Shown piece after piece: positions 6,704 through 49,653 of a stretch of 64,000 nucleotides of DNA. Below the pieces are notes generated by a model. The model was not told the origin of the DNA and made no database searches. It was given only the letters and a program-made list of their open reading frames with translations. This DNA is from Hyphomonadaceae bacterium (GTDB taxonomy: Bacteria; Pseudomonadota; Alphaproteobacteria; Caulobacterales; Hyphomonadaceae). Every line of letters starts with the position of its first letter. Position 1 is the first letter of the stretch. The position numbers were made by a program, and so were the translations under genes. The stretch lies in the NCBI GenBank assembly GCA_022844345.1, contig JALHLU010000015.1, positions 9,680-73,679 on the forward strand, written 5' to 3'.

Positions 6704-9700
6704 CTACTCTGCCGGCTGCAGCGCGGGTTCGGATCCGCCGCGTTGCCCTTGGGCCGGCTTGCGCTTGAGAACGAGCCTGCAAATTGCCGGCAGAACGAAC
6801 AGCGTGAGCGCCGTGGCGGTTATCAATCCGCCGATCACGACAGTCGCCAATGGCCGCTGCACTTCGGCGCCCGTTTCGGTCGCCAAGGCCATCGGCACGA
6901 AGCCAATGGCGGCAACGAGGGCAGTCATCAGAACAGGGCGATACCGCTCGATGGCGCCCTCGATGATCGCTACATCCAGGGCGATACCAGCGTCGAGGCG
7001 CTTGCGGATGCTGGTCATCATCACCAGACCGTTCAGCACAGCCACGCCCGACAAAGCGATGAAGCCAACTGCCGCGGAAATCGAGAAGGGCATCCCGCGG
7101 AGCACCAGCGCAAATACCCCGCCAGCAAGCGCCAACGGCACGGCCGAGAAGACTGCAAGCGCCGGCGCGATACCACCGAGAGCCATGTAGAGCAGCGCCA
7201 GGATGAGGACGAAGCAGATCGGAACGACGACTCCCAGGCGCGCCGACGCGGCCTGGAGGTTCTCGAACTGACCGCCCCACGCGATGTAGGCGCCTGCCGG
7301 AAGTTCGATCTGCGCCACTTTGGTCTGAGCTTCGGTGACAAAGCCGCCCAGGTCCCGGCCCCGGATGTTGGCCTGCACGACGATGCGCCGCTTGCCATTC
7401 TCGCGGCTGATCTGGTTCAGCCCTTCTGTGAAGGAGAACTCGGCCAGAGACCGTAGCGGGACGCTCAGTCTTTGCTGACCTTCTACGGGCGGCAGCATTA
7501 CGGGCAGCGCGCCGATCGAATTGACATCGTTGCGCAGCGAGTCCGGAACTCGGACGATGATATCGAAGCGACGGTCTCCCTCGAAGACGAGACCGGCTTC
7601 TCGTCCGCCAAGGGCGGAGGCGACAGCATCGGCAACCTCCTCGATGGTGAGCCCATTTCTTGCGATGGCGTCGCGGTTAAACTTGACGTCCAGAATCGGG
7701 AAGCCTTGGGTCTGTTCGACTTTCACATCTGCCGCGCCATCGATGGTTTGGAGCGCTTCAGCAATTTGCTGTGCGGCAGGTCCTAGTACGTCGAGATCGT
7801 CGCCATAGAGCTTGACGGCGACGTCTGAGCGAACGCCCGAGATAAGCTCATTGAAGCGCAGCTCGATCGGTTGGCTGAACTCAAAAGCATTTCCAACCTC
7901 CGCAGAAATTGCCGCCTCGATTTTGGCGACAAGCTCCTCCTTCGTGATCTTCTCCGGCCACTCATGCTCGGGCTTTACGATCACAAATCCGTCCGAGATG
8001 TTGACGGGCATTGGATCAGCAGCGACTTCCGCGGTCCCCGTCTTCGACATGACGCGTTCGACTTCCGGCAATGCCACAATGGCTTGCTCCACACGCTTTT
8101 GCATGTCGATTGACTGGTAAAGCGACGTCGACGGAATCCGAAGCGACTGAACCGCAAGATCCTTTTCGTCGAGCTGCGGCGTAAACTCCTGGCCCAGTGT
8201 GGTAAACAGATATCCGGCCACCACGAAGATAGCGGCTCCAGCTCCGATCACAGGCAAGGGCGCCCGCACGGCGGCCCGCAACAACGGCACGTAACGCGCT
8301 TTCGTAACGCGAACGACAGTCACCTCTTTCTCAGCAACCTTGCCGCGGATGAGGATCGCCACCATGGCAGGCACGAAGGTAAGCGACAGGATGAAGGCGC
8401 CAGCGAGCGCCAGCATAACGGTGATCGCCATCGGCGAAAACAATTTTGCCTCAACGCCGGTGAACGCCAGAAGCGGCACGTAGACCAGGAAAATGATCGC
8501 CTGGCCGAAGACAGTCGGCTGAATCATTTCCTTGGAGGCCTCAGTTACCTCAAACAGCCGCTCCTGGAGTGACAGCAGCCTCCCCTCATGGTGCTGTCGC
8601 TCGGCCAAGCGTCGCAGGCAGTTCTCGACAATGATGACGGCGCCATCGACAATCAGGCCGAAATCCAGCGCGCCGAGGCTCATCAGATTGCCCGACACGC
8701 CGAGTTCGTTCATGCCGATCGCGGTCATCAGCATCGAGAGGGGAATGACAAGCCCGGTGATCAGGGCAGCGCGGAAGTTACCGAGCATCACAAAGAGAAT
8801 GACAACGACGAAAAGAGCGCCTTCGGCAAGGTTCTTCTCAACAGTCGCCACAGTTGCGTTCACCAGCATCGAGCGATCGTAGGCTACGTTCGCTTCGATG
8901 CCCGGCGGCAAGGACTTTGCGACTTCTACCAGCCGCGCTCCGACATCAGATGCAACCGTTCGGCTGTTGGCGCCTGTCAGCATGAAGGCTGTGCCGATCA
9001 CGACTTCTTCGCCGTTCTTGGTGGCCGCCCCCGTGCGCAAGTCGCCGCCGATCTTGACTTCCGCGAGGTCCTGAACCGCGACCGGCACGCCTTCACGGTT
9101 GGCCACCACCGCGCGGCGAATCTCATCGAGGGTTCGCACACGCGCGTCTGCGCGGATCAGAAAGGACTCGCCTCCCCGCTGGAGGAAGTTGGCGCCGACA
9201 GACAGGTTGGCGCTCTCTAACGCCTGGGCGAGCTCCGCGAAGGACACGCCAAAGGCCGCAAGCTTGGCCGGGTCGGGTTCGATGACATACTGCTTCTCGT
9301 AGCCCCCGATAGAATCGATCCCCGCGACGTTCTCGATAGCGCGCATCTGGGGCCGGATGATCCAGTCCTGCACAGTCCGGAGGTAGGCGCCGCGCGCGAC
9401 CTCGTCTGCCAGAGTTTCACCTTCAACCGTCAGGAAGGTTCCATCAGGTTGCAAGCCAGGTTTGCCGGCGTTGGCGGCAACGAAGGCTGCATCCGGTTTG
9501 GCGAACTCGACCGTCCACATGAAGATGTCGCCAAGGCCCGTGGTGATCGGACCGATGGTCGGTTGAATGTCAGCGGGAAGCGCGTCGCGTGACTGGGCGA
9601 GGCGTTCGGTAACCTGCTGCCGCGCGAAGTAGATGTCAGTGCCTTCGGTGAACACGGCCGTCACCTGGCTGAAGCCATTGCGTGAGAGGGAGCGCGTGCT

Positions 9701-12587: not shown

Positions 12588-12654
12588 TGGAATTGCCTGA
12601 AATCAGAGTGTCAGCTCTACGCATGCGATCATGCGCGCGCGGTTACACTTCGAG

Positions 12655-16517: not shown

Positions 16518-17153
16518 ATGCCGGAAAAAAGGGCGAAAAAGAGTGCGAAGCGTCCGGTGCGCCGCGCTTTGCAGTCGCGTTCAAGGGCGACTGTGGATGC
16601 GATCGTCAAAGCCACTGCTCGGATTCTGGCGGAACGGGGATGGACGGCGCTCAATACCAATGCGATTGCAGCCCGCGCCGGCGTGTCGATCGGATCCGTT
16701 TACGAGTACTTCCCCAACAAGCAATCCATTCTCAACGTGATCATTGATCGGCACCTGGCGGCAGGCGAAGCCAAACTCGCCGAAGCCACGAGTATTCTGT
16801 CCAGCGGAAAGGACGCTGATGATATAGTCGAGGCAGTGGTCTCTGGCTTCATCCAGTTACACCAGGATGATCCGCGATTGCATCGCGCCCTGTCTACCGA
16901 AGTCCCTATTTCACCCGCCCAACGCCGCCGGATCGAAGCGCTACGCTCGAAGATCGTCATTGCAGTGACATCAGCTCTTTCCGAGTACGTCGACGGCGCA
17001 GAACTCAAAGCGACACTGCTTGTCGAAACGGCAGATGCGCTCGCTCACAGATGGTTTGTCGATAAGGTCGGCCTGCCTGTATCTGCAAGCACGATGGCCG
17101 GTGAGACTTCGACGATGCTCAAGAGTTATGTGTCTGCAGGACGGTCAGATTAG
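16518..17153 (+). CDS. TetR/AcrR-family transcriptional regulator
   Basis: 211 aa. N-terminal HTH (TNAIAARAGVSIGSVYEYFPNK). Divergent from the hydrolase gene. Confidence 0.85.
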   Translation: MPEKRAKKSAKRPVRRALQSRSRATVDAIVKATARILAERGWTALNTNAIAARAGVSIGSVYEYFPNKQSILNVIIDRHLAAGEAKLAEATSILSSGKDADDIVEAVVSGFIQLHQDDPRLHRALSTEVPISPAQRRRIEALRSKIVIAVTSALSEYVDGAELKATLLVETADALAHRWFVDKVGLPVSASTMAGETSTMLKSYVSAGRSD

Positions 17154-18936: not shown

Positions 18937-19605
18937 TCAGTCGTATTGTTTCAAGTCGGTGTAGTCGCCGCTGGTACGGAGCGTGATCGTGACGGGTTGG
19001 CCGCTGCGATTGCGCCAGAACCAGCCATGGCTTCCGGTGAAGGCGGCCGTCAGCTCGCCTTCCTGACGGTCCACATTCGTGCCCTTGCCGTAGCCGTGAT
19101 AGTTGATCCCGGCGCCGTCGCCATGGGTGTCGTAGTTCACCTTGGGACCGTTGGTGAACCATTCGAAGCGTGCAGTGACACCTTTCTCCATGACCAGCTT
19201 GACCTCGTAGCCATCATCGGGCGCGAGATTGACCGTCGTCGTATCAGACCAGGTCTGGGCTTGCGGCGCTGAAGGTGCGGGGGTCGGCTGTACCGCCGCG
19301 GCCGGCAAGGCTTCTGCTGGCGCGGCGGGCGGCACGACATTGGTGGATGGCTGCGCGGCGCCTTGGGACGCAGCAACGTCTGCAGCCGCGTCCGCCTTTG
19401 CCTCTTCCGCAAGCTGCATCTTGATGCGGCCCATCTCTGTCAGGCCAAGCAGGGAGCCCACGCCTGTCGGGTCGACGCCGTACTCCGCGGGAAGCACCGT
19501 CGTCACCAGGAGTGCGCTGGCGATAACCGCTGCGATGCCTGTGGATTTGAGGAGCCTGCCAGTCGAGGGCAGCTCTGAGGGATCAGGTCTTTCTGCGTTG
19601 AACAT
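18937..19605 (-). CDS. membrane-anchored protein of unknown function (partner of the HupE/UreJ-like gene)
   Basis: 222 aa: one N-terminal TM helix, an Ala/Pro-rich linker, and a C-terminal beta-rich domain (YEVKLVMEKGVTARFEWFTNG...HGWFWRNRSGQPVTITL). Confidence 0.6.
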   Translation of the reverse strand: MFNAERPDPSELPSTGRLLKSTGIAAVIASALLVTTVLPAEYGVDPTGVGSLLGLTEMGRIKMQLAEEAKADAAADVAASQGAAQPSTNVVPPAAPAEALPAAAVQPTPAPSAPQAQTWSDTTTVNLAPDDGYEVKLVMEKGVTARFEWFTNGPKVNYDTHGDGAGINYHGYGKGTNVDRQEGELTAAFTGSHGWFWRNRSGQPVTITLRTSGDYTDLKQYD

Positions 19606-27311: not shown

Positions 27312-28346
27312 ATGCCTATGAAAATGGCTCGTCTGTTTTGTCTGGCGTTAGCCGCAATCGGCGCGACGGCGACGGCTCAAGAGGTTTCGAAATACACTCC
27401 GTCCCGGACAAGCTGGGGGGCGCCGGACCTGCAGGGCGTGTGGAACAATACGTCGCTCACTCAACTGGAGCGACCTTCACGGATAGATAAGCTCGCGGTC
27501 AGCGCAGAAGAAGCAGCGTTTCTGGCCCGCCAGCACACCTATACACGCGCAGCCTATCAAGACGGCAGTCAGTCCAGACTGGATACAGAGTCGTCCCGGC
27601 GCTTGCTGGCCGACAAGAACACCTCACGCGCTTACAACAGTTTCTGGCTGGATCCCGGAACGGGCTACGCTCAGGTGAGAGGCGAATACCGCACGTCGTG
27701 GATCACAGAGCCAGGTGATGGCCGCATTCCCTATCGCGACCCAGCCAGCGCAACACGCCCTCGGACGCAGATATTCGATGGACCTGAAGCGCGGCCTCAG
27801 TCGGAACGATGTCTGATGAGCTTTACGGGCGGGGCCGGGCCCGTGATGAACAGCGGTCTGTACAACAGCAACTACCAGATTGTGCAGACGCCCGGCTATG
27901 TGATGATTCTCAGCGAGATGATCCATGATGTCCGCATCATCCCCATGGGAGGCCAGCATGCATCGCGCGACATTCCGAAATGGGGCGGTGATGCGATCGG
28001 CTGGTATGAGGGCGACACGCTCGTAGTCGAGACGGTGAACCCCAACCCCGGGCAGCGGTCATACATTTCCGCAGCCGGAAAGCTAACTGAGCGCTTCACC
28101 CGCTGGAGCAATGGGCAAATCGTCTATGAGTTCACCGTAGACGACCCGACGCTTTATACGAAAACATGGAACGGCGAGATTGCGCTCAACGCTTCAAAGC
28201 AGCCTTTGTATGAGTACGCATGCCATGAAGGAAACTACGCTCTCCCCAGTATACTGAACGGCGCCCGCGTCCTTGAGCGTGAAGGACGTGAGCAACCTCC
28301 GATCAAGGAACCATACCCCGGCGTTGATGTTTCGGAGGGCCAGTAG
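27312..28346 (+). CDS. secreted protein of unknown function
   Basis: 344 aa counted from the ATG at 27312. Signal peptide MPMKMARLFCLALAAIGATATAQE. A conserved-looking YEYACHEGNY motif lies near the C-terminus. No family name that I can support. Confidence 0.6.
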   Translation: MPMKMARLFCLALAAIGATATAQEVSKYTPSRTSWGAPDLQGVWNNTSLTQLERPSRIDKLAVSAEEAAFLARQHTYTRAAYQDGSQSRLDTESSRRLLADKNTSRAYNSFWLDPGTGYAQVRGEYRTSWITEPGDGRIPYRDPASATRPRTQIFDGPEARPQSERCLMSFTGGAGPVMNSGLYNSNYQIVQTPGYVMILSEMIHDVRIIPMGGQHASRDIPKWGGDAIGWYEGDTLVVETVNPNPGQRSYISAAGKLTERFTRWSNGQIVYEFTVDDPTLYTKTWNGEIALNASKQPLYEYACHEGNYALPSILNGARVLEREGREQPPIKEPYPGVDVSEGQ

Positions 28347-28864
28347 ACGAACTCGCGTAGAGGGAGCGGCTGCAACCCATTGCAAGAGATTGCTGCAAAC
28401 CCTGTAACGCGGGCAACAGATTGTTTCGCAAACGTTAGGCTCGGTTGCGTCAAAGTCTGCGTATTACAACTGGCTCGCAGTCCGGGGAGGAGGAGTTGCT
28501 CCGCGATGGGGTCAGCGCGCTTCAACAACTGCTTTCCGCTTTGACCGCTGATAGCGCGCCGTCAGCGTCAAATCGGAATTTCTCGAAAGGGCCGCGAGTT
28601 TGCCGATCCCCGAAATGTGGCGATGCGGCTGAGTCGATCCAGTTACGTCATTCAGGCGGCGGGACGTGCTGCGGCGGGAGCTCGCCCAATAAGCGTCGTT
28701 CGTAATCTTCGGGGTTTCAGGCCGGATTGGCGAGATCACAAATTAAGCCTGGGTAAGCGCTTCTCCAGCATGCCAACTGTGTCCGGAAGATGAGCAACCT
28801 CCGTAGTTAAAGCTTCGGACTTGCGGCGGCCGGCTCCCGGACAAGCTGCGCGTTCGTTGATATG

Positions 28865-30846: not shown

Positions 30847-31113
30847 TCAGCGCCGGAAGACGCCGACGAGTTCTTCGATGACCTTTTCCTGCTCTGAAGC
30901 GTTCTTCGAGTTCATAGCGCGGTGCACGCAATGGCCAAGGTGTTGCCGCAACAGGTCGCTTTCGATGCGCGCGAGCGCAGCACGGGCCGCTTCGATCTGT
31001 GTCACCACATCAATGCAATAGCGGTCCTCCTCGACCATTTTCGCGATGCCGCGAACCTGCCCTTCTACCCGGTTCAGATTCTTCAGAACCTTCTCGGAAA
31101 CCGATTTTTCCAT
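30847..31113 (-). CDS. csoR: CsoR-family Cu(I)-sensing repressor
   Basis: 88 aa counted from the ATG at 31113, DUF156 fold. x-C-H-C ligand pattern (RYCIDV ... HLGHC). Divergent from the Cu ATPase gene. Confidence 0.88.
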   Translation of the reverse strand: MEKSVSEKVLKNLNRVEGQVRGIAKMVEEDRYCIDVVTQIEAARAALARIESDLLRQHLGHCVHRAMNSKNASEQEKVIEELVGVFRR

Positions 31114-31170: not shown

Positions 31171-33672
31171 ATGCAAGCCCCGGAGGGCGCCATGGCGCAT
31201 ACCCACCCTGAAGGATCTGAACTGAAAGATCCCGTCTGCGGCATGACGGTGAAACCAGATACGCCCCATCGCGAAACGCACGACGGCCACGAGGTGCTGT
31301 TCTGCAGCGCGGGCTGCAAAACGAAATTCCAGGCCGAGCCTGGTCGATATCTGAAACCTGCCGCCAAGACCGAACACAGCTGCTGTTCCGCGGATGGGGC
31401 CAAGGCTGGGCACGCTAGCGGTCAGGATGCCGGGAGCCATCATCACCTCCATTCACACGCTCCATCCCCTGCACCTGCTACAGCCTCCGCTCCTGCCGGC
31501 GCGAAATGGACCTGCCCGATGCATCCGGAGATTGTGCGGGATGGGCCGGGCTCCTGCCCGATCTGCGGAATGGCGCTCGAGCCGATGATGCCGACGGCCG
31601 AAGCAGGGCCGAACCCCGAGCTCGCCGACATGTCCCGTCGCTTCTGGGTGGGTCTGGTCCTGGCGTTGCCGGTGCTAGTTCTGGAGATGGGCCGTCACTT
31701 ATTCAACGTCGATGCTCTTGTACCTCCGCAAATCAATGCGTGGATCCAGTTTGGCCTCGCGACACCGGTAGTCCTTTGGGCGGGTTGGCCATTCTTCGAA
31801 CGGGGCTATGCTTCGCTTGTCAACCGAAGCCTCAACATGTTCACGCTGATTGCGCTCGGGACGGGAGTGGCATGGACCTACAGCGTGGTCGCCCTGCTCT
31901 TCCCCTCGGCGTTTCCGCCAGAGTTCCGCGGCCCACATGGCGATGTAGCCGTCTATTTTGAAGCGGCCGCCGTCATCATAGTGCTTGTGCTCCTCGGGCA
32001 GGTTCTGGAGCTGGGCGCACGCGAGCGTACGGGGGGCGCCATCCGCGCCCTGCTCGATCTTGCTCCCAAGACTGCGCGCCGCATCAGTGACGGCGAAGAA
32101 GCGGAAGTACCGCTTGATGCAATCATGGTCGGCGATCGGTTGCGCGTCCGCCCTGGTGAGAAGACGCCGGTTGACGGCGTTGTCATCGACGGTCGCTCCA
32201 CGGTCGATGAGTCGATGGTTACCGGCGAATCCATGCCTGTCACGCGGAGCGTCGGCGACGCGGTCATTGCGGGCACGCTCAACCAGACCGGCGCGCTCGT
32301 GATCGAAGCCAAACGCGTCGGCCGCGACACCATGCTGTCGCAGATCGTCCAGCTGGTTGCCGACGCGCAGCGCAGCCGTGCGCCGATTCAGCGCCTGGCA
32401 GACAAGGTATCAGGCTGGTTCGTACCTGCAGTGATCGCTATTGCCGTCCTGGCGTTTATCGGCTGGTGGGCGTTCGGTCCGCAGCCCTCCTTCACCTATG
32501 GACTGATCGCTGCCGTTTCCGTTCTGATCATCGCGTGTCCGTGCGCGCTTGGCCTCGCCACCCCCATGTCCATCATGGCGGGTGTTGGTCGCGCAGCACG
32601 TCAGGGTGTCCTTATCCGCAACGCTGAGGCGCTGGAGCGCTTCGAGAAGGTCAATACTCTGGTTCTCGACAAGACCGGAACACTGACTGAGGGCAAGCCA
32701 GGTGTTGTCGCGATCACTACGGTTGCAGAGACAAGCGAAGCTGACCTGTTGCGCGCAGCCGCAAGTCTTGAGCAGCGCAGCGAGCACCCCCTTGCGCTTG
32801 CCGTCGTCGCAGCCGCTAAAGAACGTGGCGTCTCGCTGGTCGAGCCGACGGAATTCGATTCGCCGACTGGAAAGGGCGTCATCGGCAAGGTCGAGAGCAA
32901 GACCGTCGCGCTTGGCGCCGAACGCTATCTGGATGAACTCGGTATCGCGACATCTTCCCTTCACTCCGAAGCAGAACGTCTGCGCGCGGATGGCGTCACG
33001 GCCATTTTTGTTGCGATCGACGGCAGACTAGCTGGCGTTGTGGGCATCGCTGACCGAATCAAGGCGACCACGCCTGAGTCGCTCAAGGCGCTGCGCGCCC
33101 AAGGCATCGAACTGGTGATGCTGACCGGCGACAATCGCACGACAGCCGAAGCCGTCGGCCGGACCCTCGGCATCACGAATGTCGAGGCAGAAGTCCTGCC
33201 TGAAGACAAATCGCGCATAGTCGAAAGGCTCAAGCGAGAAGGCCGCATCGTTGCGATGGCGGGAGACGGCGTCAATGACGCGCCGGCTCTGGCGGCGGCT
33301 GACGTTGGGATCGCCATGGGGACAGGCACGGATGTCGCCATCGAAAGTGCTGGCGTCACATTGCTCCGGGGCGATCTCAGCGGGGTTGTGAAAGGCCGGG
33401 CTGTGTCGCGCGCGACAATGGCGAACATCCGGCAGAATCTGGTTTTTGCGTTCGGCTACAATGCCCTCGGGATCCCTGTTGCCGCTGGCCTTCTTTATCC
33501 AATCACGGGTCAGCTGCTGTCCCCCATGATCGCGGCGCTCGCCATGGCGTTGTCCTCGGTATCGGTAATCGTGAACTCGCTGAGGCTGGGGGCCACGCCG
33601 AACGACGGAGCACACGGGTCGGGCCAGCCACCGCTTCCGGCGCCAACCCGGTCAGGCGCTAGTTGCCACTAG
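31171..33672 (+). CDS. copA: Cu(I)-exporting P1B-1 ATPase
   Basis: 833 aa with CPC ([13 protein letters not shown]), YN (FGYNALGIP), MALSS, DKTGTLT and GDGVNDAP. The N-terminus carries a TRASH/YHS-like motif (DPVCGMTV...FCSAGC) and a CPMHPE...CPICGM ribbon instead of an HMA fold. Confidence 0.93.
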
Positions 33673-33695
33673 CGGTCCGGGGCGGAGCCCCTGGT

Positions 33696-33722
33696 GAGGG
33701 TTCTGCCCACAAGCTGCGTACT
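33696..33722 (+). promoter_or_regulatory. candidate ECF-type promoter upstream of copC
   Basis: GAGGGTTCTGCCCACAAGCTGCGTACT. It shares GAGGG-N13-CTGCGTACT with the site upstream of the oxidase copA. It resembles the CnrH-type -35 (..AGGGG..) and -10 (CCGTATA) as I recall them. Confidence 0.4.
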
Positions 33723-33777
33723 ATGTACGACCCCCTCCCCGCCGCACAAAATCTGCGGCTAGATCAACGAGCATCCG

Positions 33778-34134
33778 ATGAAAAACAAGCTTCTGACTCT
33801 CATGCTGGCGGCAACGCTCCTGGGCGCATCGCCCGCCTTCGCCCACGGCGGCATGATGGAAACCAGCATTCACGACAAGGCCAGCCTTGCGCAGGCCCCG
33901 GCCGAGTTCAAAGTGACATTCCAGCACGAGAGCGCCATCACCAGCCTGATGTTGATGACAGCGGACAAGAAGATGATCGCGGTTGATTTCAAGCCGTCGA
34001 AGGCCATGGGAAAGGAATTCACGATCCCACTGCCGACGCTCGCAAAAGGCTCCTACACGCTGTCCTGGAAGTCGATGGCGAAGGATGGCCATGCCATGCC
34101 GGGCGCCGTGCGCTTCACGGTGACAGGCCAGTAG
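33778..34134 (+). CDS. copC: periplasmic copper-binding protein CopC
   Basis: 118 aa. Signal peptide ending AFAHG (mature N-terminal His). CopC-fold pattern ...YTLSWKSMAKDGHAMPGAVRFTV. Confidence 0.88.
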   Translation: MKNKLLTLMLAATLLGASPAFAHGGMMETSIHDKASLAQAPAEFKVTFQHESAITSLMLMTADKKMIAVDFKPSKAMGKEFTIPLPTLAKGSYTLSWKSMAKDGHAMPGAVRFTVTGQ

Positions 34135-34138
34135 CACC

Positions 34139-34990
34139 GTGACCGGAGACGGACTGTCGCTGCTGCAGTTCGCCGACCGGATCGGTCTCAATCTCTTTGC
34201 GCTTCTGACGGTCGGTTTCGCGCTCCATGCTGCTTTGGGCATCGTGGAGCGCGATGCATTTCGAGGCGTGCGGTCACGCATCGCGCTTGCCGGTCTTGCC
34301 CTCGCTTTCTTCACCATGGTGCGGTTCGGCATTCTGATCGCGCAGATGGGGGATGGGACGAATGCCTTCGATCCCGAACTGATGCCACTGGCGTGGATGG
34401 TCCTCGGCGATTCGACGCTTGCGATCCTTGCAGGAGTCGCCATCTCCGTCGGAGGCGCCTGGTTCGGTTCACCACTCACTGCCGCCCTTGGAGCAGCCGC
34501 GCTCAGTTTTGGATTCGGCCTCGCGGGACACGCGCAGGGTCTGGCCGATCCTGGCCTCGCGCCGCTTGCGGTCGCCGTGCACGTCTTCATCGCCGGTTTC
34601 TGGGTGGCCGCTCCGGTCAGTCTCTATCCGGCCCCGACGCAGGAAGACCCTGAACTTCTTTCCCGTCTCCGACGGTTCAGTTCAATCGCCGTCGTCGCTA
34701 TTCCTGTTCTGATTGCACTCGGCGCATGGCTCGCCTGGACGTTGGCCGGGGGGATGGAGAAGCTATTCGGCACGACTTATGGTCTTCTTCTGCTCGCCAA
34801 GCTCGCGATCGGCATTGTCGCGATGGGCCTCGGCGCTCTCAACAAGCAGATCATAACGGTGAAGATCGCAACTGATCCGGCCATCGGCCGCAAGTGGCTG
34901 CGCGTAACGCTGCTGTGCGAGGCGACCCTGTTTGCAGCGGCCATCATTGCCGTCTCCGCCGCCACCACGATTGGTGGTCCTGCCGAGTAA
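34139..34990 (+). CDS. copD: copper resistance membrane protein CopD
   Basis: 283 aa with a GTG start. Eight hydrophobic segments. Sits immediately downstream of copC. Confidence 0.85.
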   Translation: MTGDGLSLLQFADRIGLNLFALLTVGFALHAALGIVERDAFRGVRSRIALAGLALAFFTMVRFGILIAQMGDGTNAFDPELMPLAWMVLGDSTLAILAGVAISVGGAWFGSPLTAALGAAALSFGFGLAGHAQGLADPGLAPLAVAVHVFIAGFWVAAPVSLYPAPTQEDPELLSRLRRFSSIAVVAIPVLIALGAWLAWTLAGGMEKLFGTTYGLLLLAKLAIGIVAMGLGALNKQIITVKIATDPAIGRKWLRVTLLCEATLFAAAIIAVSAATTIGGPAE

Positions 34991-35080
34991 CGGAGGCTCA
35001 GCATCCGTGCAGGATGCTTCGCTGGGCCGGCAATCCCGCCCACAGCGGCCAAGAATCGGATGCCTGTCCAATCCTTGCGT

Positions 35081-35103
35081 GAATTCCACCTCCCCTGCGT
35101 ATA
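35081..35103 (+). promoter_or_regulatory. candidate autoregulated ECF promoter upstream of the cnrY-like gene
   Basis: CCCTGCGTATAG, with CGTATA at 35098-35103, about 33 nt before the ATG. The -10 matches the CnrH-type CCGTATA at 6 of 7 positions. The -35 (GCGTG at the aligned position) is poor. Confidence 0.35.
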
Positions 35104-35135
35104 GACTGGAGAGACGTACTTATTGGGAGACCGGC

Positions 35136-35411
35136 ATGTCGCCAGAACTGGACCATTTGCTGGCGAAATTGAACCAGCAGCCGCTGGACCGTGATCTTGG
35201 CGGCATAACCGTCGAGATCGGCGAGCAGCTCTCGGAGCGTGCCAAGATTGACGGCCAGACCTGGCGGCTGCGTACCGCCGCTATGGCGCTCCTCGTAATG
35301 GGCGGCGCTGCCGTAAGCGCCTCGACCGCATCAGCCGTAGCGCCCTCCCCATCGCCATTTGCCGCCTGGTCCAGCCTTGCGCCGTCAACCCTGCTGGAGC
35401 CTTCCGAGTGA
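35136..35411 (+). CDS. small single-pass membrane protein, CnrY-like anti-sigma candidate
   Basis: 91 aa with a GGGAGA RBS. One TM helix (AAMALLVMGGAAV). GTGA overlap with the cnrX-like gene. The assignment rests on size, topology and position only. Confidence 0.55.
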   Translation: MSPELDHLLAKLNQQPLDRDLGGITVEIGEQLSERAKIDGQTWRLRTAAMALLVMGGAAVSASTASAVAPSPSPFAAWSSLAPSTLLEPSE

Positions 35412-35848
35412 AGGTTTCGGTGCGCAGCGCCATCATCACGGTTGTCCTCGCCTTCGCAGCCGGGATCGCCGGCATGTGGCTTGGCCACCAGCTGCTCGCC
35501 GCCCCACCGCAAGATCGGTCCCTGCACGCGATGGTGCATGACGAACTTTCGCTGACAGCCGAACAGGAGAAGGCGCTTCACACTCTCGAGGCGGACTTCG
35601 CAGCACGGCGGCAAGCCCTGGAGGGCGAGATGCGAGAGGCCAATGCGGAGCTGGCCGCAGCAATCCGAGCAAGCGAGACCGCAGGACCGGCCGTGGAGGC
35701 GGCTGTGCATCACTTCCACGACGCCATGGGCGCGCTTCAGACGGAGACGATCGCGCACATCTTCGCGATGCGCAACGTGCTCACCCCAGAACAGCGCAGG
35801 CAGTTCGACGACAGGATCGGCGAGGCGTTGACCGCCGACGCCAAATGA
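35408..35848 (+). CDS. cnrX: CnrX/NccX-type periplasmic metal sensor
   Basis: 146 aa with a GTG start and an N-terminal TM anchor. H40, H44, E61, H117 and M121 reproduce the spacing of the CnrX ligands H42/H46/E63/H119/M123. Blocks LHAMVHDE and HIFAMR. Confidence 0.85.
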   Translation: MKVSVRSAIITVVLAFAAGIAGMWLGHQLLAAPPQDRSLHAMVHDELSLTAEQEKALHTLEADFAARRQALEGEMREANAELAAAIRASETAGPAVEAAVHHFHDAMGALQTETIAHIFAMRNVLTPEQRRQFDDRIGEALTADAK

Positions 35849-36426
35849 GCGGAACCAATCCGGACGATAGCGACGCCGTGCTTGCCGCGCGCGCGCTGAA
35901 GGGAGATCGCTCAGCTTTCAACCTTATTGTCCGGCGCCATCAGGAGCCGCTCTACCGCTTCATCCGTCGCTACGTTGGCGATGCCGATGAAGCGTACGAT
36001 CTCCTTCAGGAAACCTTCGTTTCAGCCTGGCAGGCGCTCGGGCGTTATGATCCCGCTCGTCCCGCGGCGACCTGGCTTCGTCGGATCGCGCTCAACAAAT
36101 GCCGGGACTGGGGTCGCCGTCGCGTTGTCCGGAAGTTCTTCTACGCGGCCAAGATGCTTGATGAAACCACTGCCACGCCGGACGTTAGCGCCTCGCCAAA
36201 CTCCGAGGACAATACTGAGGTCGCGCTGACCCGCCTCGACCGGGCGATCGCCGCTCTGCCTGTTCAGCTGAAGGAGCCCCTTCTCCTTACCGCCTTCGAA
36301 GGCTTGTCCCAGGCGGCAGCTGGCGAAGCGCTCGGAATTTCTGCCAAGGCCGTCGAAACCCGCGTCTACCGCGCCCGCAAGCTGCTTGCGGAAGCGCTCA
36401 CGGCCGACGGCGTTGATGTCGACTAA
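35845..36426 (+). CDS. cnrH: ECF sigma factor (CnrH-like)
   Basis: 193 aa with sigma-70 regions 2 and 4 (DEAYDLLQETFVSAW; LSQAAAGEALGISAKAVETRVYRARKLL). ATGA overlap with the cnrX-like gene. Confidence 0.85.
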   Translation: MSGTNPDDSDAVLAARALKGDRSAFNLIVRRHQEPLYRFIRRYVGDADEAYDLLQETFVSAWQALGRYDPARPAATWLRRIALNKCRDWGRRRVVRKFFYAAKMLDETTATPDVSASPNSEDNTEVALTRLDRAIAALPVQLKEPLLLTAFEGLSQAAAGEALGISAKAVETRVYRARKLLAEALTADGVDVD

Positions 36427-36958: not shown

Positions 36959-37978
36959 TCAGTACCACGCCCGCAGGCCGATGACGAAGCTCGTCGTCTC
37001 CGCGCTCTCTCCGTCGGCCCGCGCATAGTCGGCCGTATCCCCGAATTTGCGTTCCCACGAGACGCCGATGTAGGGGGCGAACTCGCGCTGAAACTCGTAA
37101 CGGAGACGCAGGCCCACTTCCGCGTCGGAAAGCCCGGAGCCAAGGCCAATGGCAGCATCGTCTTTGGCGGCGAAGTTCACTTCGGCGCGTGGCTGGAGGA
37201 CGAGGCGCTGCGTGAGCTGGAAATCGTAGTTGCCATCGAGACGCCCAAGCACCTGCCCGCGTTCGCCGACGAACAGCGCTCCCTCCACTTCGAACCAGTA
37301 AGGCAGGACTGTTTCAAAGCCCAGCGCGAGGTAAGTACGCGAAGGATTGGGTTCGATGTCCTGTCGGATGCCAATCTGAAGGTCAGTGACGTGATCCCAG
37401 GCGCGCGAGTAGAGCGCCTGGATTTCTGCGCTCTCGATATCTTCGCCACCTTCGCCTTCGGTCTTGATGACAAAGCGATCGATGTCGCCGCCGAACCATG
37501 CCTCGCCATTCCATGCATAGCCATCCTCGCCGTCCTGGCTGCGATACTCGATCATATCGCCCATGATCTTGTAGGTCAGCGCACCGCCATGCTCGTCGCG
37601 CAGGATGCCGCGCGCCCGGTTCATGTCGTCCACTCCAAAGAAGCGGTCGGCCGCAAATTCAGCTGGCGCGTCAGGCGGTACATCATTGCCAGCCTCCGGC
37701 GGATCAACGAACTCCTCGGCCATCTTGTGGCCAGCATGCGGGTCCAGCGCAGCAGCAGCGGGTTTACCGCCGTGATCATGCTGTGCGTGCGGTTCAGCAG
37801 GCGCTGCCCGTTGCGGTTGCGGCACTGGGGTCTTTGGCGTGGGCGTTTGGGGCGCGGGCTTTGGGGCCGCGGGCGCCTGAGGAGCCGGCGTCTGTATCGT
37901 CCCATGGCCTTCGTGCTGCGCGAGCGCCGGAGCTGCTATGCCAAGGGATAGAGCGGCAAGAAGAAGATACCGGTTCAT
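36959..37978 (-). CDS. copB: outer-membrane copper resistance protein CopB/PcoB
   Basis: 339 aa with a signal peptide. His/Pro-rich N-terminus. The C-terminal barrel ends in ...SFVIGLRAWY. ATGA overlap with copA. Confidence 0.9.
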   Translation of the reverse strand: MNRYLLLAALSLGIAAPALAQHEGHGTIQTPAPQAPAAPKPAPQTPTPKTPVPQPQRAAPAEPHAQHDHGGKPAAAALDPHAGHKMAEEFVDPPEAGNDVPPDAPAEFAADRFFGVDDMNRARGILRDEHGGALTYKIMGDMIEYRSQDGEDGYAWNGEAWFGGDIDRFVIKTEGEGGEDIESAEIQALYSRAWDHVTDLQIGIRQDIEPNPSRTYLALGFETVLPYWFEVEGALFVGERGQVLGRLDGNYDFQLTQRLVLQPRAEVNFAAKDDAAIGLGSGLSDAEVGLRLRYEFQREFAPYIGVSWERKFGDTADYARADGESAETTSFVIGLRAWY

Positions 37979-39786
37979 GCGGCAGCTCCATCGAGCGGGC
38001 GTACAGTGAAGACCTGAAACATCCCTGCGTGCATGTGGTAGAGCATGTGGCAGTGGAAGGCCCAGTCGCCGGGCTCGGCCGTGAAGTCGAACTTCACAAT
38101 CCCGCCCGGAGCGGCAATGACCGTGTGCTTGCGCGGCATGTGGCCTAGAGGGGCCCGGTGGACCAACTCAAAAAAGTGACCATGCAAGTGAATGGGGTGC
38201 GCCATCATGGTGTCGTTGACGAGGCTGACGCGGACACGTTCGTTTTTGCGAAAGGCGTAGGGTGCCGGCTTGTCGGAGAACTTCTTGCCGTCGAAGCCCC
38301 ACATGAATCGCTCCATGTTGCCGGTGAGGCGGATCTCCAGTTCGCGCGAGGGCGCACGTGTGTCGGCGTTCGGCTCCAGTGCGATGAGGTCCTTGTAGAC
38401 AAGAACACGATGGCCAACGCTCTCAAGGCCCTGCCCGGTCTCCCCGGTGCGATCCATCGGCATGGGGGCAATTGACTGCACACCCGGCCCAAGCTCGACC
38501 TGCGGCGCGTTCATCCAGTTTCGCATGGACATGTCCATGCCTTCCATCCCAGCCATATCGCCCATCACATCCGACCCGCGCACGCGCGGCGCCGCCATCC
38601 CAGGTACAGCCACCGCAGCCATACCCGCATGGCCAGCATGCTCGCCCCCGCTCATGCCGCCCATGTCGTGCGCCATGCCCATATCTTTCATGGTCCCCAG
38701 AGGGCGCTCCCGCAGCGGTGGGACCTCCGCTGTCATGCCAAGGCGTGGCGCAAGCGTTGCGCGCGCCATCCCCGAACGATCGACGGCCTCAGCAACCAGC
38801 GTGAAGGCCCGATCTTCGGTCGGCGTGACGATGACGTCATACGTCTCGGCGTTACCGATCTGGAACTCGTCAACCGTGACCGGACGCACATTCTGCCCGT
38901 CGGTCGCCACGACACTAAGCTTCAGGCCGGGAATGCGCACATTGAAAATGGTCTGCGCCGCGGCGTTGATGAAGCGCAGACGGACGCGCTCGCCGGGCGT
39001 GAAGAGACCCGTCCAGTTGTCGGCAGGTCCGCGACCGTTGACGAGGAAGGAATAGACCGCCCCGGTAATGTCCGAGATGTCGGTCGGATCCATGAGCTCG
39101 CGGGCCCACTCCATGCGCTCGGCAAGCGACTGGTCCTGGCCAGCCAGAAGCCCCGCGATGGTCTGCTTCTGAAAATTGAACACACCCGCTTCCTGCTTCA
39201 GCTTTTGGAACAGGCGGTGCGGGTGGATGAAGCTGTAGTCCGACAAAACGATCACATGCTCGCGGTCGTAGGCCACCGGATCGGGACCGGCCGGATCAAC
39301 GATCATCGCTGCGTAGTGTCCCTCCTGCTCCTGCAGTCCGGAGTGACTGTGAAACCAGTAGGTGCCCGACTGTTTCACGGGGAATTCGTAAGTGAAGGTC
39401 TCACCAGCCCGGATTCCCGGAAAGCTGACGCCGGGCACGCCATCCATTTCGAACGGCACCAGCAGCCCGTGCCAGTGGATCGACGTATCTTCTTCAAGCG
39501 TGTTGGTAATATGCAGGCGAACGGTCTGGCCTTCCCTGAGCCGAATGATTGGGCCAGGGACAGTTCCGTTGATGGCGACTGCATGACCCGTCCTGCCATC
39601 AATCGTGATCTGGCTGTGGCCGATCGTCAGGTGGATGTCCGAGCCGGACAGGGTCTGGGTCTCCATGGCGGCAGCAGCGGGTTGCTGGGCCCAAGCGCCG
39701 GGTCCGAACGCCGCAGCGACACTCGAAAGCGCCGTACCAACTAAAAATTGCCGCCGGCCAAGGCCTCGCATCGCCCTGTCGCCCAT
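37975..39786 (-). CDS. copA: multicopper oxidase CopA/PcoA
   Basis: Start at 39786 with GAGGAG 6 nt upstream. Tat signal (GRRQFLVGTAL). HWHG, HSH and HCHMLYHM copper sites. Met/His/Gly-rich insert (MKDMGMAHDMGGMSGGEHAGHAGM...). Confidence 0.92.
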   Translation of the reverse strand: MGDRAMRGLGRRQFLVGTALSSVAAAFGPGAWAQQPAAAAMETQTLSGSDIHLTIGHSQITIDGRTGHAVAINGTVPGPIIRLREGQTVRLHITNTLEEDTSIHWHGLLVPFEMDGVPGVSFPGIRAGETFTYEFPVKQSGTYWFHSHSGLQEQEGHYAAMIVDPAGPDPVAYDREHVIVLSDYSFIHPHRLFQKLKQEAGVFNFQKQTIAGLLAGQDQSLAERMEWARELMDPTDISDITGAVYSFLVNGRGPADNWTGLFTPGERVRLRFINAAAQTIFNVRIPGLKLSVVATDGQNVRPVTVDEFQIGNAETYDVIVTPTEDRAFTLVAEAVDRSGMARATLAPRLGMTAEVPPLRERPLGTMKDMGMAHDMGGMSGGEHAGHAGMAAVAVPGMAAPRVRGSDVMGDMAGMEGMDMSMRNWMNAPQVELGPGVQSIAPMPMDRTGETGQGLESVGHRVLVYKDLIALEPNADTRAPSRELEIRLTGNMERFMWGFDGKKFSDKPAPYAFRKNERVRVSLVNDTMMAHPIHLHGHFFELVHRAPLGHMPRKHTVIAAPGGIVKFDFTAEPGDWAFHCHMLYHMHAGMFQVFTVRPLDGAAA

Positions 39787-39833
39787 CCGTAGCTCCTCGT
39801 CGGAAAGAGTTGCGCGATTGCGCGCCTGCAAAC

Positions 39834-39860
39834 AGTACGCAGGGCGCGCCATAATCCCTC
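39834..39860 (-). promoter_or_regulatory. candidate ECF-type promoter upstream of the multicopper oxidase copA
   Basis: The minus strand reads GAGGGATTATGGCGCGCCCTGCGTACT. It has the same GAGGG-N13-CTGCGTACT layout as 33696-33722, about 49 nt before the ATG. Confidence 0.4.
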
Positions 39861-40069
39861 GGCAAAGTCGCATTGGGGCGCCTGCCCACGCTGCCGTTCG
39901 CGGTCAGCGATCCTGAGACGAATAAGGGCGCCGTTCGCCCGGGGCCCATTCCATCCGCAGCGCCAAATTGGGGGTATGGCCTTCGCAGCAATGGCGGGAC
40001 AGGTCCCCGCTGCCAGCGCTCACGCGGGCGCCTCGATCACCGTGCATCGGCATGAGGCCCGTCAAGCCC

Positions 40070-47469: not shown

Positions 47470-49389
47470 TCACTCAGCCGCCACGGCGGCGTAACCAGCA
47501 TCCGTCACTTCGAAGGAACCGGCTGCCATTGCCGTGATGATAAAGTCCGGCAGGTAGGCGACGCCGGCAAATGCCTCCTCGACTTTCGTCGCAAGCTCGT
47601 CGCGCTTCAACTTCGCGTAGGCCTTCAAGACGTCCGCGCGCTGGTCACAGGCCATGGCCTCGATGCGCGGGGCTGTCTCGACAGCTGCGATCAGTTGGGC
47701 CTTCGACAAGCGTGACCAGTAGCTGGCATCCGCCCGCCAGTGATGGCTCATGTCAATGTCCAGCGCCATCGCCAGGCGATCGGCACACGCACGTCGCGAA
47801 GCGTCCCCGGAGGCGCCCTTCTCATGCGTCAGATCAATCGCGGCAGCCGTCAAAACCGCGAGGATGCCGAGGAGGTCCGGCGCCGGTCGGGAAAGACACC
47901 ATTCCAGGACGTCGGCCTCCTGCGGAAGCCGGGCCGCCAAGCTGCCACGGGTGTCAGCAAACGCGTCATCGTCCTCGACAGACGCTGCGTGCGCGGAGAT
48001 GCCCACACCGGCGAGGTCGCACCTGAACGCGGACCGAGAGATGAACGCCGCGACCGCGACAGCCAGCGCCGTTTCAGGTCGCTCGGCGAGCCTCATCCGG
48101 ATTGCACGCGTGCGCGCCAGCGACAGGTCTCGGATAACCGTCTTCGGCAGATCAATATCAGAGGCAGGCCCCTGTCCTGCGGGCTCGACGTCAGGGATAT
48201 CCTCGTCCGTCTGACCCGCTTCCTCCCTGGCGGCCTTCGCAAGGAGCGCACGCACAGTCTTCTCATCGTCCTGCCGAATGAACCCGCATGTGGCGCATGA
48301 ATGTCCGTCGAAATCGATCGAAAGCACGACGCCCGCATGGGCGATCAGCGTCGGCGGCCAGACGCGTGCGGCTTGACGGATGGTTTCCAGTTGGCCGGCG
48401 AGCGTGTCACGGGCTTCCCAGCGCGGATCGTCCTCGACGCTGTCCTGGTCAAGCGCTTCGTCGAGCGTGTCGATCTCGGATTGCAAACGCTGAAGTTCCG
48501 CCTCTTCTTCCGGCGTCGCGTCGCGCCAGATGGGCTGAAGGCGTGAAGCCGCATAGCCATCAGGGCGTCCCTGTCCAAGATGGGCGTCGACCCAGCCCCA
48601 TCCCTGATCAAGCCAGGCTTGTCGCCCGGCTTCGAGTTTTTCTTCGGCCAGTCGGGCAACCAACGCTGGATCATCGATATACACTGCATCAGCATCAAAC
48701 AGATCACGTGTGACCGCGCCGCCTGCGCGTTCGTAGGCCTCGAGTCCAATGTATTTCACGAGACGGTCTGACGCGCGAACGCGCCCTTCCATGAGCCTTG
48801 CGCGCACCGACGTCGCGTGAGTCACGGGCTTTCCCAGGCTCTTGAACACCGCGTCCTGCTGCGCGTGATCCTCGACCAGGCAGAAGGCGCGCGCCGCATC
48901 GAGGCTGACATCGCCCCGCTTCCACGCAGCCTTGATCCGGGGCGACAATCCCGAAAGCGCGAGTCGCTGATCGACGTGGCGGCGTGTCACGCCAAAGCGA
49001 CGCGCAACATCCTCAGGTGTCCCGCCATCGGCGATCAGCGCGCCGTAGGCTTCCACCTCGTCAATCGCGTCCATGCCAACGCGATGAACATTCTCGGTCA
49101 GCGAAACTTCTCGCCCCTCTCCGATCGTCACAATATTGCAGGCAACCGGATGATCTTTCGGAATGATCTTGTCGCGCGCCAGCTGCTTCAATGCCGCCAG
49201 CCTGCGCCCGCCTGCGTCGACTTCGAATTTTCCATCTTGATTCGCGACGACGCAGAGGTTCTGCAGAAGACCGCATGCAGCGATGGAGGCGGCAAGCGCA
49301 TCGACATCGATCTTGCGATCCGTCTTTCTGACATTGCGCGGTGAAGCAACGAGCTTGTTGAGTGGAATCATTTGAAGAGCGGACGTCAT
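47470..49389 (-). CDS. large ParB/Srx-domain protein of conjugative elements
   Basis: 639 aa counted from the ATG at 49389, with an AAGGAG RBS. N-terminal ParB box (LVASPRNVRK...GGRRLAAL) and a long C-terminal extension. Confidence 0.85.
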   Translation of the reverse strand: MTSALQMIPLNKLVASPRNVRKTDRKIDVDALAASIAACGLLQNLCVVANQDGKFEVDAGGRRLAALKQLARDKIIPKDHPVACNIVTIGEGREVSLTENVHRVGMDAIDEVEAYGALIADGGTPEDVARRFGVTRRHVDQRLALSGLSPRIKAAWKRGDVSLDAARAFCLVEDHAQQDAVFKSLGKPVTHATSVRARLMEGRVRASDRLVKYIGLEAYERAGGAVTRDLFDADAVYIDDPALVARLAEEKLEAGRQAWLDQGWGWVDAHLGQGRPDGYAASRLQPIWRDATPEEEAELQRLQSEIDTLDEALDQDSVEDDPRWEARDTLAGQLETIRQAARVWPPTLIAHAGVVLSIDFDGHSCATCGFIRQDDEKTVRALLAKAAREEAGQTDEDIPDVEPAGQGPASDIDLPKTVIRDLSLARTRAIRMRLAERPETALAVAVAAFISRSAFRCDLAGVGISAHAASVEDDDAFADTRGSLAARLPQEADVLEWCLSRPAPDLLGILAVLTAAAIDLTHEKGASGDASRRACADRLAMALDIDMSHHWRADASYWSRLSKAQLIAAVETAPRIEAMACDQRADVLKAYAKLKRDELATKVEEAFAGVAYLPDFIITAMAAGSFEVTDAGYAAVAAE

Positions 49390-49653
49390 TTGGAACTCCT
49401 TCGAATTCCCGGGTGCATAGGCAATGCCGGGGGCCGCTCCGGCGGCCGACAGCGGTGGGCGCCTGCCGGTCAGGACGGCGCTCAAGGGCGAAGAGCGCAG
49501 CGTCCCTTGAACGGCGGACGCGGCAGGTGATGACGCAGAGGCCACGCCGAGCGGCTGAAGGCAGCACCGCGGCAAAGAGCCAAGCGCTTGCTCAAGCTGC
49601 AGTCAGCTGACCCATTTTAATGTCCGCTAGTCGCCGGAAAAGGGCACGAGGTC

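Follow-up and report, generated by a model that had tools for sequence, protein, structure and literature searches.

A CnrYXH-type sensor and sigma factor module with predicted copper-resistance outputs in Alphaproteobacteria

Introduction

CnrYXH is a textbook model of periplasmic metal selectivity and of class II anti-sigma factors. To our knowledge, it is known only as a nickel/cobalt switch for a resistance-nodulation-division (RND) pump. Here, we describe a module of the same type, composed of three genes termed Y, X and H, in a stretch of 64,000 nucleotides from a Hyphomonadaceae bacterium (assembly GCA_022844345.1, contig JALHLU010000015.1, positions 9,680 to 73,679; this whole stretch is referred to as the window), where the immediate neighbours of the module are the copper-resistance genes copCD and copAB.

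In the described relay, CnrX senses the metal and CnrY sequesters and releases the sigma factor (PMC6851896), and the corresponding group of extracytoplasmic function (ECF) sigma factors, ECF291, is defined by a CnrY-like anti-sigma gene at position −2 (PMC7826278). Reviews of metal- and copper-responsive signalling list CorE and CarQ as the only copper-linked ECF systems, the remainder being one-component and two-component regulators (PMC6851896, PMC10141476). A copper transcriptome paper on Caulobacter crescentus explains the core copper response by SigF, and no regulator resembling CnrX is named there for pcoAB. We found no description of a cop-linked CnrX-type/ECF system in the searchable literature, subscription journals and ECF Hub subgroup notes aside.

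What is new here is that the CnrYXH relay recurs with another predicted output and, probably, another signal. We hold it to be probable that Y-X-H is an autoregulated transmembrane module with copCD and copAB as its outputs in place of an RND pump, and that it likely senses copper. The evidence points to a large plasmid- and island-borne relative of CnrYXH controlling multicopper-oxidase copper resistance.

Results

Y, X and H as a CnrYXH-type module

The module comprises the following genes:

35136..35411, plus strand: Y, 91 amino acids, ATG start; presumed CnrY-like, single-pass anti-sigma factor, assigned by position, size and topology, with marginal sequence similarity
35408..35848, plus strand: X, 146 amino acids, GTG start; membrane-anchored periplasmic metal sensor with the CnrX/NccX fold
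35845..36426, plus strand: H, 193 amino acids, ATG start; CnrH-type ECF sigma factor with ECF291-like architecture

Judged from their sequences, Y, X and H are an intact, complete CnrYXH-type module. All three genes are intact and under purifying conservation, and they are linked by 4-base overlaps, the GTG start of X lying on the TGA stop of Y (GTGA) and the stop of X being joined to the start of H by ATGA. A Shine-Dalgarno sequence, GGGAGA, is located 6 nt upstream of the Y ATG. An initial annotation of this DNA had proposed three translationally overlapped genes with these junctions, encoding a 91-residue single-pass protein, a periplasmic sensor and an ECF sigma factor, and open reading frames, hydrophobic segments, Pfam and Protein Data Bank (PDB) matches all agree with that description. 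Of the sigma-70 regions, H has just 2 and 4 (Pfam Sigma70_r2 and Sigma70_r4_2), and the alignment with CnrH that had been proposed as a check yielded CnrH (4cxf_A) as the best PDB match at 2.5e-33, compared with 7e-20 for the next ECF sigma factor. The anti-sigma candidate gene resides at position −2 relative to H and X at −1, an order that fits the ECF291 definition with the homology of Y as its caveat.

CnrY/NccY proteins measure about 95 residues and combine a cytoplasmic amino-terminus with one transmembrane helix and a short tail in the periplasm. Y has a single hydrophobic segment (residues 50–68, compared with 46–64 in CnrY) and shares with CnrY a P-x-x-L-L motif at the carboxy-terminus. 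Using a profile built from 74 Y proteins of the alphaproteobacterial clade, three CnrY/NccY sequences ranked 2nd, 4th and 5th among 1127 sequences, 1000 of which were shuffles. A profile–profile alignment of Y with CnrY (hhalign) placed the amino-termini in register with P=5.9e-4 but a probability of 29% only, and we regard this comparison as only suggestive.

Conserved linkage to copper genes

Searching with X yielded 162 close relatives from the protein collection and at least 465 relatives from a one-genome-per-species scan. The best 80 originate from Hyphomonadaceae metagenome-assembled genomes (to 98% identity and probably of the same lineage as the window), Caulobacter, Brevundimonas, Phenylobacterium, Terricaulis and many sphingomonads, and the genes concerned are annotated as 'periplasmic heavy metal sensor', 'RNA polymerase sigma factor' or 'hypothetical protein'. 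To assess synteny, the proteins of the window were mapped on 83 related loci from Hyphomonadaceae, Caulobacter, Brevundimonas, Phenylobacterium and sphingomonads. Copper genes were found within 6 kb of the module in 77 of these 83 loci, with copA in the stored flank of 56, compared with a single locus (1/83) having a Czc-type pump within the same distance. The arrangement had initially been considered unusual; in Alphaproteobacteria it is instead the standard for this clade.

H is directly followed by copA-copB on the same strand in 29/83 loci, and 13/83 share the order of the window, with ATPase-copC-copD-Y-X-H facing a convergent snoaL-copB-copA unit. In Sphingomonas sp. NY01 p1, Sphingobium baderi pDE1 and Caulobacter segnis, copD-copC is divergent from Y-X-H-copA-copB, a layout mirroring cnrYXH-CBA with copAB in the place of the pump. 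Within the plasmid collection, 77 records carried a CnrX relative; nine of them were true cnr/ncc loci (Cupriavidus and Ralstonia, at least 80% identity) with an RND pump downstream, and the other 68 were alphaproteobacterial.

Predicted H-dependent promoters

On pMOL28, the sequences AAGGGGGAG-N-GCCGTATAA upstream of cnrY and GAGGGGAAG-N-TCCGTATAG upstream of cnrC give the common form (A/G)AGGGG-N16-CGTATA, and the same elements are present in ncc-like loci. For cnrYp, primer extension revealed the −10 element CCGTATA and run-off transcription confirmed it (PMC13492112), and the start sites of cnrY and cnrC are both placed 24–25 nt upstream of the genes (PMC9045368). The same two elements precede Y and copA in Sphingomonas, Sphingobium and Caulobacter segnis, where the gap from GAGGG(N) to CGTA is 15 nt, compared with 16 nt in cnr. 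A position weight matrix (PWM) seeded from seven distant sites and refined on the 83 loci, (T/C)GAGGG(a)(t)-N13-(T/C)GCGTA(t), retrieved 251 sites in their 915 kb, versus 3 in shuffled sequence.

Scanning the window with this matrix yielded exactly three sites above 14 bits, where 0.1 would be expected by chance. These predicted promoters and their predicted target genes are:

33693..33725, plus strand: P_copC (GGTGAGGGTT-N-CTGCGTACT), predicted promoter, PWM 25.7 bits, 21.6 bits in the flexible-spacer scan
33778..34134, plus strand: copC, 118 amino acids, predicted target; NCBIfam copper_CopC 6e-13, under the curated cutoff, with Pfam CopC recorded on orthologues
34139..34990, plus strand: copD, 283 amino acids, predicted target co-transcribed with copC; NCBIfam copper_CopD 2e-14, under the curated cutoff, with Pfam CopD on orthologues
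35074..35106, plus strand: P_Y (CTTGCGTGAAT-N-CTGCGTATAGAC), predicted autoregulatory promoter, PWM 20.4 bits
36440..36940, minus strand: SnoaL_3/DUF4440-like gene (Pfam), 166 amino acids, last of the predicted copA-copB-snoaL unit and convergent with H
36959..37978, minus strand: copB, 339 amino acids, outer-membrane protein, predicted target; Pfam CopB 1e-84
37975..39771, minus strand: copA, multicopper oxidase, predicted target; TIGR01480 copper_res_A 6.9e-240
39831..39863, minus strand: P_copA (GCCGAGGGATT-N-CTGCGTACT), predicted promoter about 60 nt upstream of the copA start, PWM 23.5 bits, 21.6 bits in the flexible-spacer scan

A scan with flexible spacers recovered the same three sites (17–22 bits) plus one threshold-level match inside cusA. 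P_copC falls within the 105 nt that separate the stop codon of the ATPase gene from copC, its −10 element ending 56 nt before the copC ATG, and the element is found at the same distance in 13/13 window-like loci with diverged spacers. The −10 GCGTAT of P_Y ends 33 nt before the Y ATG, a geometry resembling cnrYp, where transcription starts 23–24 nt before cnrY; the P_Y elements TGCGTGAAT and TGCGTATAGA(C/T), the latter being GCGTATTAGA in locus L025, are kept in 12 of the 13 window-like loci with a varying spacer. P_copA is retained in the 10 window-like loci for which the stored DNA extends as far as copA. Phylogenetic footprinting over the 13 loci, spanning X identities of 61–98%, thus shows −35 and −10 blocks held at a fixed distance from the genes, with spacers that change. 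No sigma-70-like promoter was found in the intergenic gaps harbouring the copC, Y and copA sites. Two further candidates, a regular-expression match at 28335–28360 and a '-10 only' match at 12623–12617 upstream of the first RND operon, were ruled out by the PWM scans.

For copA, the probable start is the ATG at 39771 (MRGLGRRQFLVG), giving a signal of the twin-arginine translocation type (RRQFL). The longest copA reading frame (632 amino acids) begins at 39873 and would span its own promoter, and another in-frame ATG is found at 39786.

Counting motifs within 400 nt upstream of each gene over the 83 loci, sites preceded copA in 49 of the 56 loci having it, Y/X in 74/83, and copC in 18/32, plus 16 divergent CopC-like genes missed by the query. 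Lower fractions were obtained for DUF411 (10/42) and the copper ATPase (5/44), and no motif was found upstream of cusC, cusA or czcA in this 83-locus scan. The other motif-bearing genes are copper-typical, comprising CopC-like, DUF305, DUF411 and His/Met-rich membrane proteins.

Some additional observations concern the motif itself. Candidate members of a copper regulon among the motif-bearing genes include a 222-residue membrane protein with a His/Met-rich amino-terminus as well as DUF305, methyltransferase-like and SnoaL-like genes, found in L072, L073, L085, L048, L052, L053 and L055 (about 400 nt upstream of X, minus strand), L010 (13965–13997), L042, L043, L070 and L079. The snoaL-like gene holds the same position in window-like loci and has its own motif in 7 other loci. 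In the C. segnis locus L001 (CP027850), minus-strand motifs at 9623–9655, 16893–16925 and 19328–19360 precede the copper ATPase, copC and two small genes heading cusCBA; as the cus operon and ATPase of the window lack the motif, the predicted regulon differs in size between lineages. The P_Y of the Hyphomonadaceae clade carries a −35 variant, TGCGTGAAT for TGAGGGAT (window 35076–35084; same position in L012–L021, L025, L034 and L071); with this variant, basal expression of the regulator genes may be lower than that of copA and copC. The ECF Hub consensus for ECF291 (−35 xATACGC, −10 xxCCCTCA; PMC13492112, Table 4) matches exactly, but in reverse complement, both TGAGGG ... GCGTAT and the cnrYp/cnrCp elements, orientation having been compared at the three window sites and at L009 (1240–1290 and 2620–2660). 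The published consensus therefore looks strand-flipped, one possible cause being that the region upstream of Y often contains a copC promoter in the opposite orientation as well (L010, L011).

The sensor X and its metal ligands

X matches the Pfam family Metal_resist (PF13801) with 3.7e-21 and 76 bits, the cutoff being 29.2. Among solved structures, only NccX (4.2e-17) and CnrX (3.5e-15) matched, in an alignment that is ungapped over residues 38–141 and in which the numbering of CnrX runs two residues ahead of that of X. H40, H44, E61, H117 and M121 consequently coincide with H42, H46, E63, H119 and M123, so that the five metal ligands reported by the initial annotation at identical spacing are recovered exactly in the alignment with CnrX. 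A hydrophobic segment is located at residues 8–26. The AlphaFold model of X, with pLDDT values above 90 over residues 50–130, comprises helices at 5–31 (transmembrane), 39–46, 51–88, 94–124 and 127–142, in agreement with the membrane anchor and four-helix hooked-hairpin domain of CnrX/NccX sensors. In a Foldseek search with this model, the 15 best matches were all CnrXs or NccX with target-normalised TM-scores of 0.68–0.85, the 14 CnrXs chains ranging from 0.76 to 0.85 and NccX (4clv) being lowest at 0.68 with a root-mean-square deviation of 5.2. These matches were followed by a gap and then by VirG-like, Spy, CpxP and ZraP structures.

We compared the ligands across the 76 distinct cop-linked sensors, where H40, H44, E61 and H117 are kept in 76/76 and M121 in 75/76. 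Because of this retention, the ligand set is no discriminator between the nickel/cobalt and the copper-linked clades, and at the level of sequence it does not show nickel/cobalt specificity. The selectivity for these two metals that had been read from Met121 is accordingly not borne out. Sensors of the CnrX/NccX type are characterised by specific activation with Ni(II)/Co(II), zinc being an antagonist; for X, the genomic context speaks for copper. The Foldseek matches also include a copper-bound CnrX (PDB 3epv), indicating that the CnrX site itself can hold copper.

Four other positions set the clade apart, as Q53, H104, M107 and Q129 are invariant in 76/76 cop-linked sensors, whereas CnrX has E55, E106, A109 and H131; in NccX, too, E and A stand in for H104 and M107. 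His/Met pairs are typical of periplasmic copper sites such as those of CusF, CopC and PcoC. H104/M107 represent a candidate second or copper-specific site. On an ideal helix with the predicted boundaries, both residues would share a face of helix 3 with H117 and M121, lying approximately 10–13 residues nearer to the hairpin tip.

Proposed mechanism and alternative explanations

By analogy with CnrYXH, the cytoplasmic amino-terminus of Y would hold H at the membrane in the resting state. Metal binding at the periplasmic four-helix site of an X dimer (His40/His44/Glu61/His117/Met121) would then alter the X–Y contact, upon which Y would free H. RNA polymerase carrying H would start transcription at TGAGGG(A)T-N13-(T/C)GCGTA(T/C) promoters, with copCD, possibly including read-through into YXH, and copA-copB-snoaL as outputs and the Y promoter providing positive autoregulation. 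Two genes upstream of copC bear on the signal:

30847-31113, minus strand: CsoR/RcnR-family repressor, 88 amino acids; PF02583 2.6e-27, YC...HxxxC motif; divergent from the copper ATPase
31171-33672, plus strand: copper P-type ATPase, upstream of copC

The divergent CsoR-family repressor and the ATPase without an H-type promoter suggest separate cytoplasmic and periplasmic control arms, in which YXH acting on copAB and copCD would complement the CsoR-family repressor acting on the ATPase. Based on the predicted regulon, this division of labour and the invariant His104/Met107, the physiological inducer is most likely periplasmic copper, though nickel or cobalt could also trigger the module since the CnrX ligand set is intact. 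At the level of whole orders, we lean slightly towards the view that Caulobacterales and Sphingomonadales sense periplasmic copper by a CnrYXH-type relay and not by a CopRS-type two-component system, with a sensor that keeps the nickel/cobalt ligands and adds His104/Met107.

Several points weigh against this interpretation. Y gave no match to Pfam, NCBIfam or PDB, and its BLAST comparison with CnrY is not significant (E=15), so that an anti-sigma role is assigned to it from its position, size and topology. The −35 element of P_Y is non-consensus (GCGTGA for GAGGGA), and promoters, regulon and inducing metal are all predictions. As the PWM was refined iteratively on the loci in which sites were then counted, the counts are somewhat circular; this circularity is limited by the near-absence of sites in shuffled sequence, by the seeds coming from distant loci and by the match to experimentally mapped cnr promoters. 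Finally, the five ligands are unchanged, including the Met recruited by nickel and cobalt in CnrX, and a response to these two metals fits them equally well.

The initial annotation had offered two options, action at a distance on an RND operon or co-option for copper genes. Its observations that no cnrCBA-like pump adjoins the module, and that copCD upstream and copB/copA downstream on the opposite strand are the immediate neighbours, both stand. The window holds a cus RND operon 4.5 kb from H and two more heavy-metal-efflux (HME)-RND operons at 6.7–12.6 kb and 20.8–26.5 kb, the latter adjoined by HupE/UreJ and major facilitator superfamily (MFS) genes. A true nickel/cobalt sensor acting in trans on this Czc/Cnr-like operon would account for a ligand set identical to that of CnrX, Met included, and the divalent-cation pump with its HupE/UreJ gene is 9 kb away. 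CnrH-type promoters are, however, absent upstream of all three RND operons, as well as of the copper ATPase (best block score at most 0.1 bits), the only nearby weak match (20454–20422, 8.3 bits) is at noise level with 1.4 such matches expected, and the scarcity of Czc-type pumps among the relatives points the same way. With the motif missing from the 20.8–26.5 kb operon, action at a distance is not borne out and we consider it very improbable; co-option for copper genes is supported by the motif before copC, Y and copA and by its family-wide conservation. A general envelope-damage reporter, with X as a Spy/CpxP-like periplasmic stress adaptor, appears similarly remote: X shares its fold with Spy, CpxP, ZraP and the LTXXQ family and matches them weakly below threshold, but the sensors of the clade conserve their metal ligands throughout (100% in 76 distinct sequences, Met in 75/76), Foldseek separates CnrX/NccX (E about 1e-5) from Spy/CpxP (0.1 or above), the PDB sequence search returned CnrX/NccX at 1e-17 and no match to Spy/CpxP, and the genomic context consists exclusively of metal genes.

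More weight attaches to the proposal that the module does drive the cop genes but answers to nickel/cobalt or to divalent metals broadly, making cop part of a nickel or mixed-metal response, although we still rate it as unlikely. Within the clade, the five ligands known from CnrX do not vary, and nickel(II) up-regulated copA, copB and copC in Sphingobium sp. ba1 (PMC5557971). The nickel-induced ba1 cluster, however, has the order ALDH-AdhP-copA-copB-MFS (ALDH, aldehyde dehydrogenase), and the S. baderi pDE1 cluster of the same order has no H-type promoter, so that nickel induction in ba1 probably does not proceed via an H-type sigma factor and a tie between the two was rejected as unsupported. 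The copper-typical regulon predicted across the loci likewise disfavours nickel as the signal, and His104/Met107, which replace Glu and Ala of CnrX and NccX, point to a changed metal chemistry. The pDE1 operon in question (L092, 167500–179500) represents a second copA-copB pair on that plasmid.

If copper sensing by Y-X-H holds, the Cupriavidus nickel/cobalt system would be a small offshoot of a mainly copper-linked family, and the 'selectivity' residue Met123 would not set which metal is signalled. The module would supply the missing copAB/copCD regulator in many sphingomonads and caulobacters and offer a natural experiment in which an unchanged His3-Glu-Met site has been retuned from nickel/cobalt to another metal. 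Its compact, predictable promoters (TGAGGG-N15-GCGTAT) would be usable in biosensor design.

Surroundings of the module

Downstream, H is followed by the convergent snoaL-copB-copA unit, with no RND pump directly after H. Beyond copA follow a DUF411 gene, cusF and the cusABC block, and one further element was noted between the DUF411 stop and P_copA:

39926..39940, minus strand: terminator-like hairpin GGGCG-AACGG-CGCCC followed by TTATT, a consensus match only

This hairpin would part the cus/DUF411 transcript from copAB. A small hairpin 3′ of copD was not significant, and no two-component regulator was found among the approximately 45 open reading frames of the window that were scanned.

As a whole, positions 1–64000 of the window resemble a mobile metal-resistance island, containing three HME-RND operons, at least two cation diffusion facilitator (Cation_efflux) genes, a HupE/UreJ gene and a glutathione S-transferase gene, along with ars-like genes (low-molecular-weight phosphatase/ArsC-type and a major intrinsic protein channel). 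The island is flanked by a ParB-like gene at 47470–49575, and a similar gene lies beside a type IV secretion system coupling protein in L003. No near-identical DNA occurred in the plasmid collection, where similarity was confined to copA/copB of Caulobacter plasmids at about 74% identity.

Comparison with known systems

Two-component systems of the CopRS/PcoRS/CusRS type have the same presumed task of linking periplasmic copper sensing to copAB/pcoAB-type genes (PMC10141476). They differ in their machinery of histidine kinase and response regulator, which is absent from the window frames scanned. CorE of Myxococcus xanthus and CarQ/CarR likewise employ an ECF sigma factor to turn on multicopper oxidase and copper genes (PMC6851896, PMC10141476). 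CorE, however, binds copper itself in the cytoplasm via a Cys-rich extension and works without an anti-sigma factor, whereas H lacks such a region and is accompanied by a candidate anti-sigma factor in the membrane as well as by a distinct sensor in the periplasm. Spy, CpxP and ZraP of the LTXXQ superfamily share a distantly related helical hairpin fold with X, but their matches are far weaker; these proteins are soluble, serve as chaperones or adaptors in the periplasm and lack the ligand set of CnrX.

The closest described systems are CnrYXH of Cupriavidus metallidurans CH34 (pMOL28) and NccYXH of strain 31A and Ralstonia plasmids, both of ECF291 (formerly ECF20). They share with the window the Y-X-H order and the overlapping stop/start codons, similar protein sizes (91/146/193 amino acids here, 95/148/191 in CnrYXH), the X fold with its five ligands, and an H that is closest to CnrH among its solved relatives. 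The predicted promoter elements agree as well, with GAGGG at −35 and CGTAT at −10, an autoregulatory promoter about 25–35 nt before Y and a second promoter before the resistance genes. In contrast to cnr and ncc, the predicted outputs are copCD and copAB, a multicopper oxidase system, and the promoter spacer is 1 nt shorter; the succession of YXH by TolC-family, adaptor and CzcA-family genes, seen on pMOL28 and on Ralstonia and Cupriavidus plasmids, is found neither in the window nor in 82 of the 83 relatives. X is only about 32–39% identical to CnrX, with H104, M107, Q53 and Q129 for the E, A, E and H of CnrX, and Y has no significant pairwise similarity to CnrY and goes undetected by the NCBIfam and Pfam models. 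The host ranges differ in the loci compared, with Alphaproteobacteria for the module described here and Burkholderiales for cnr and ncc.

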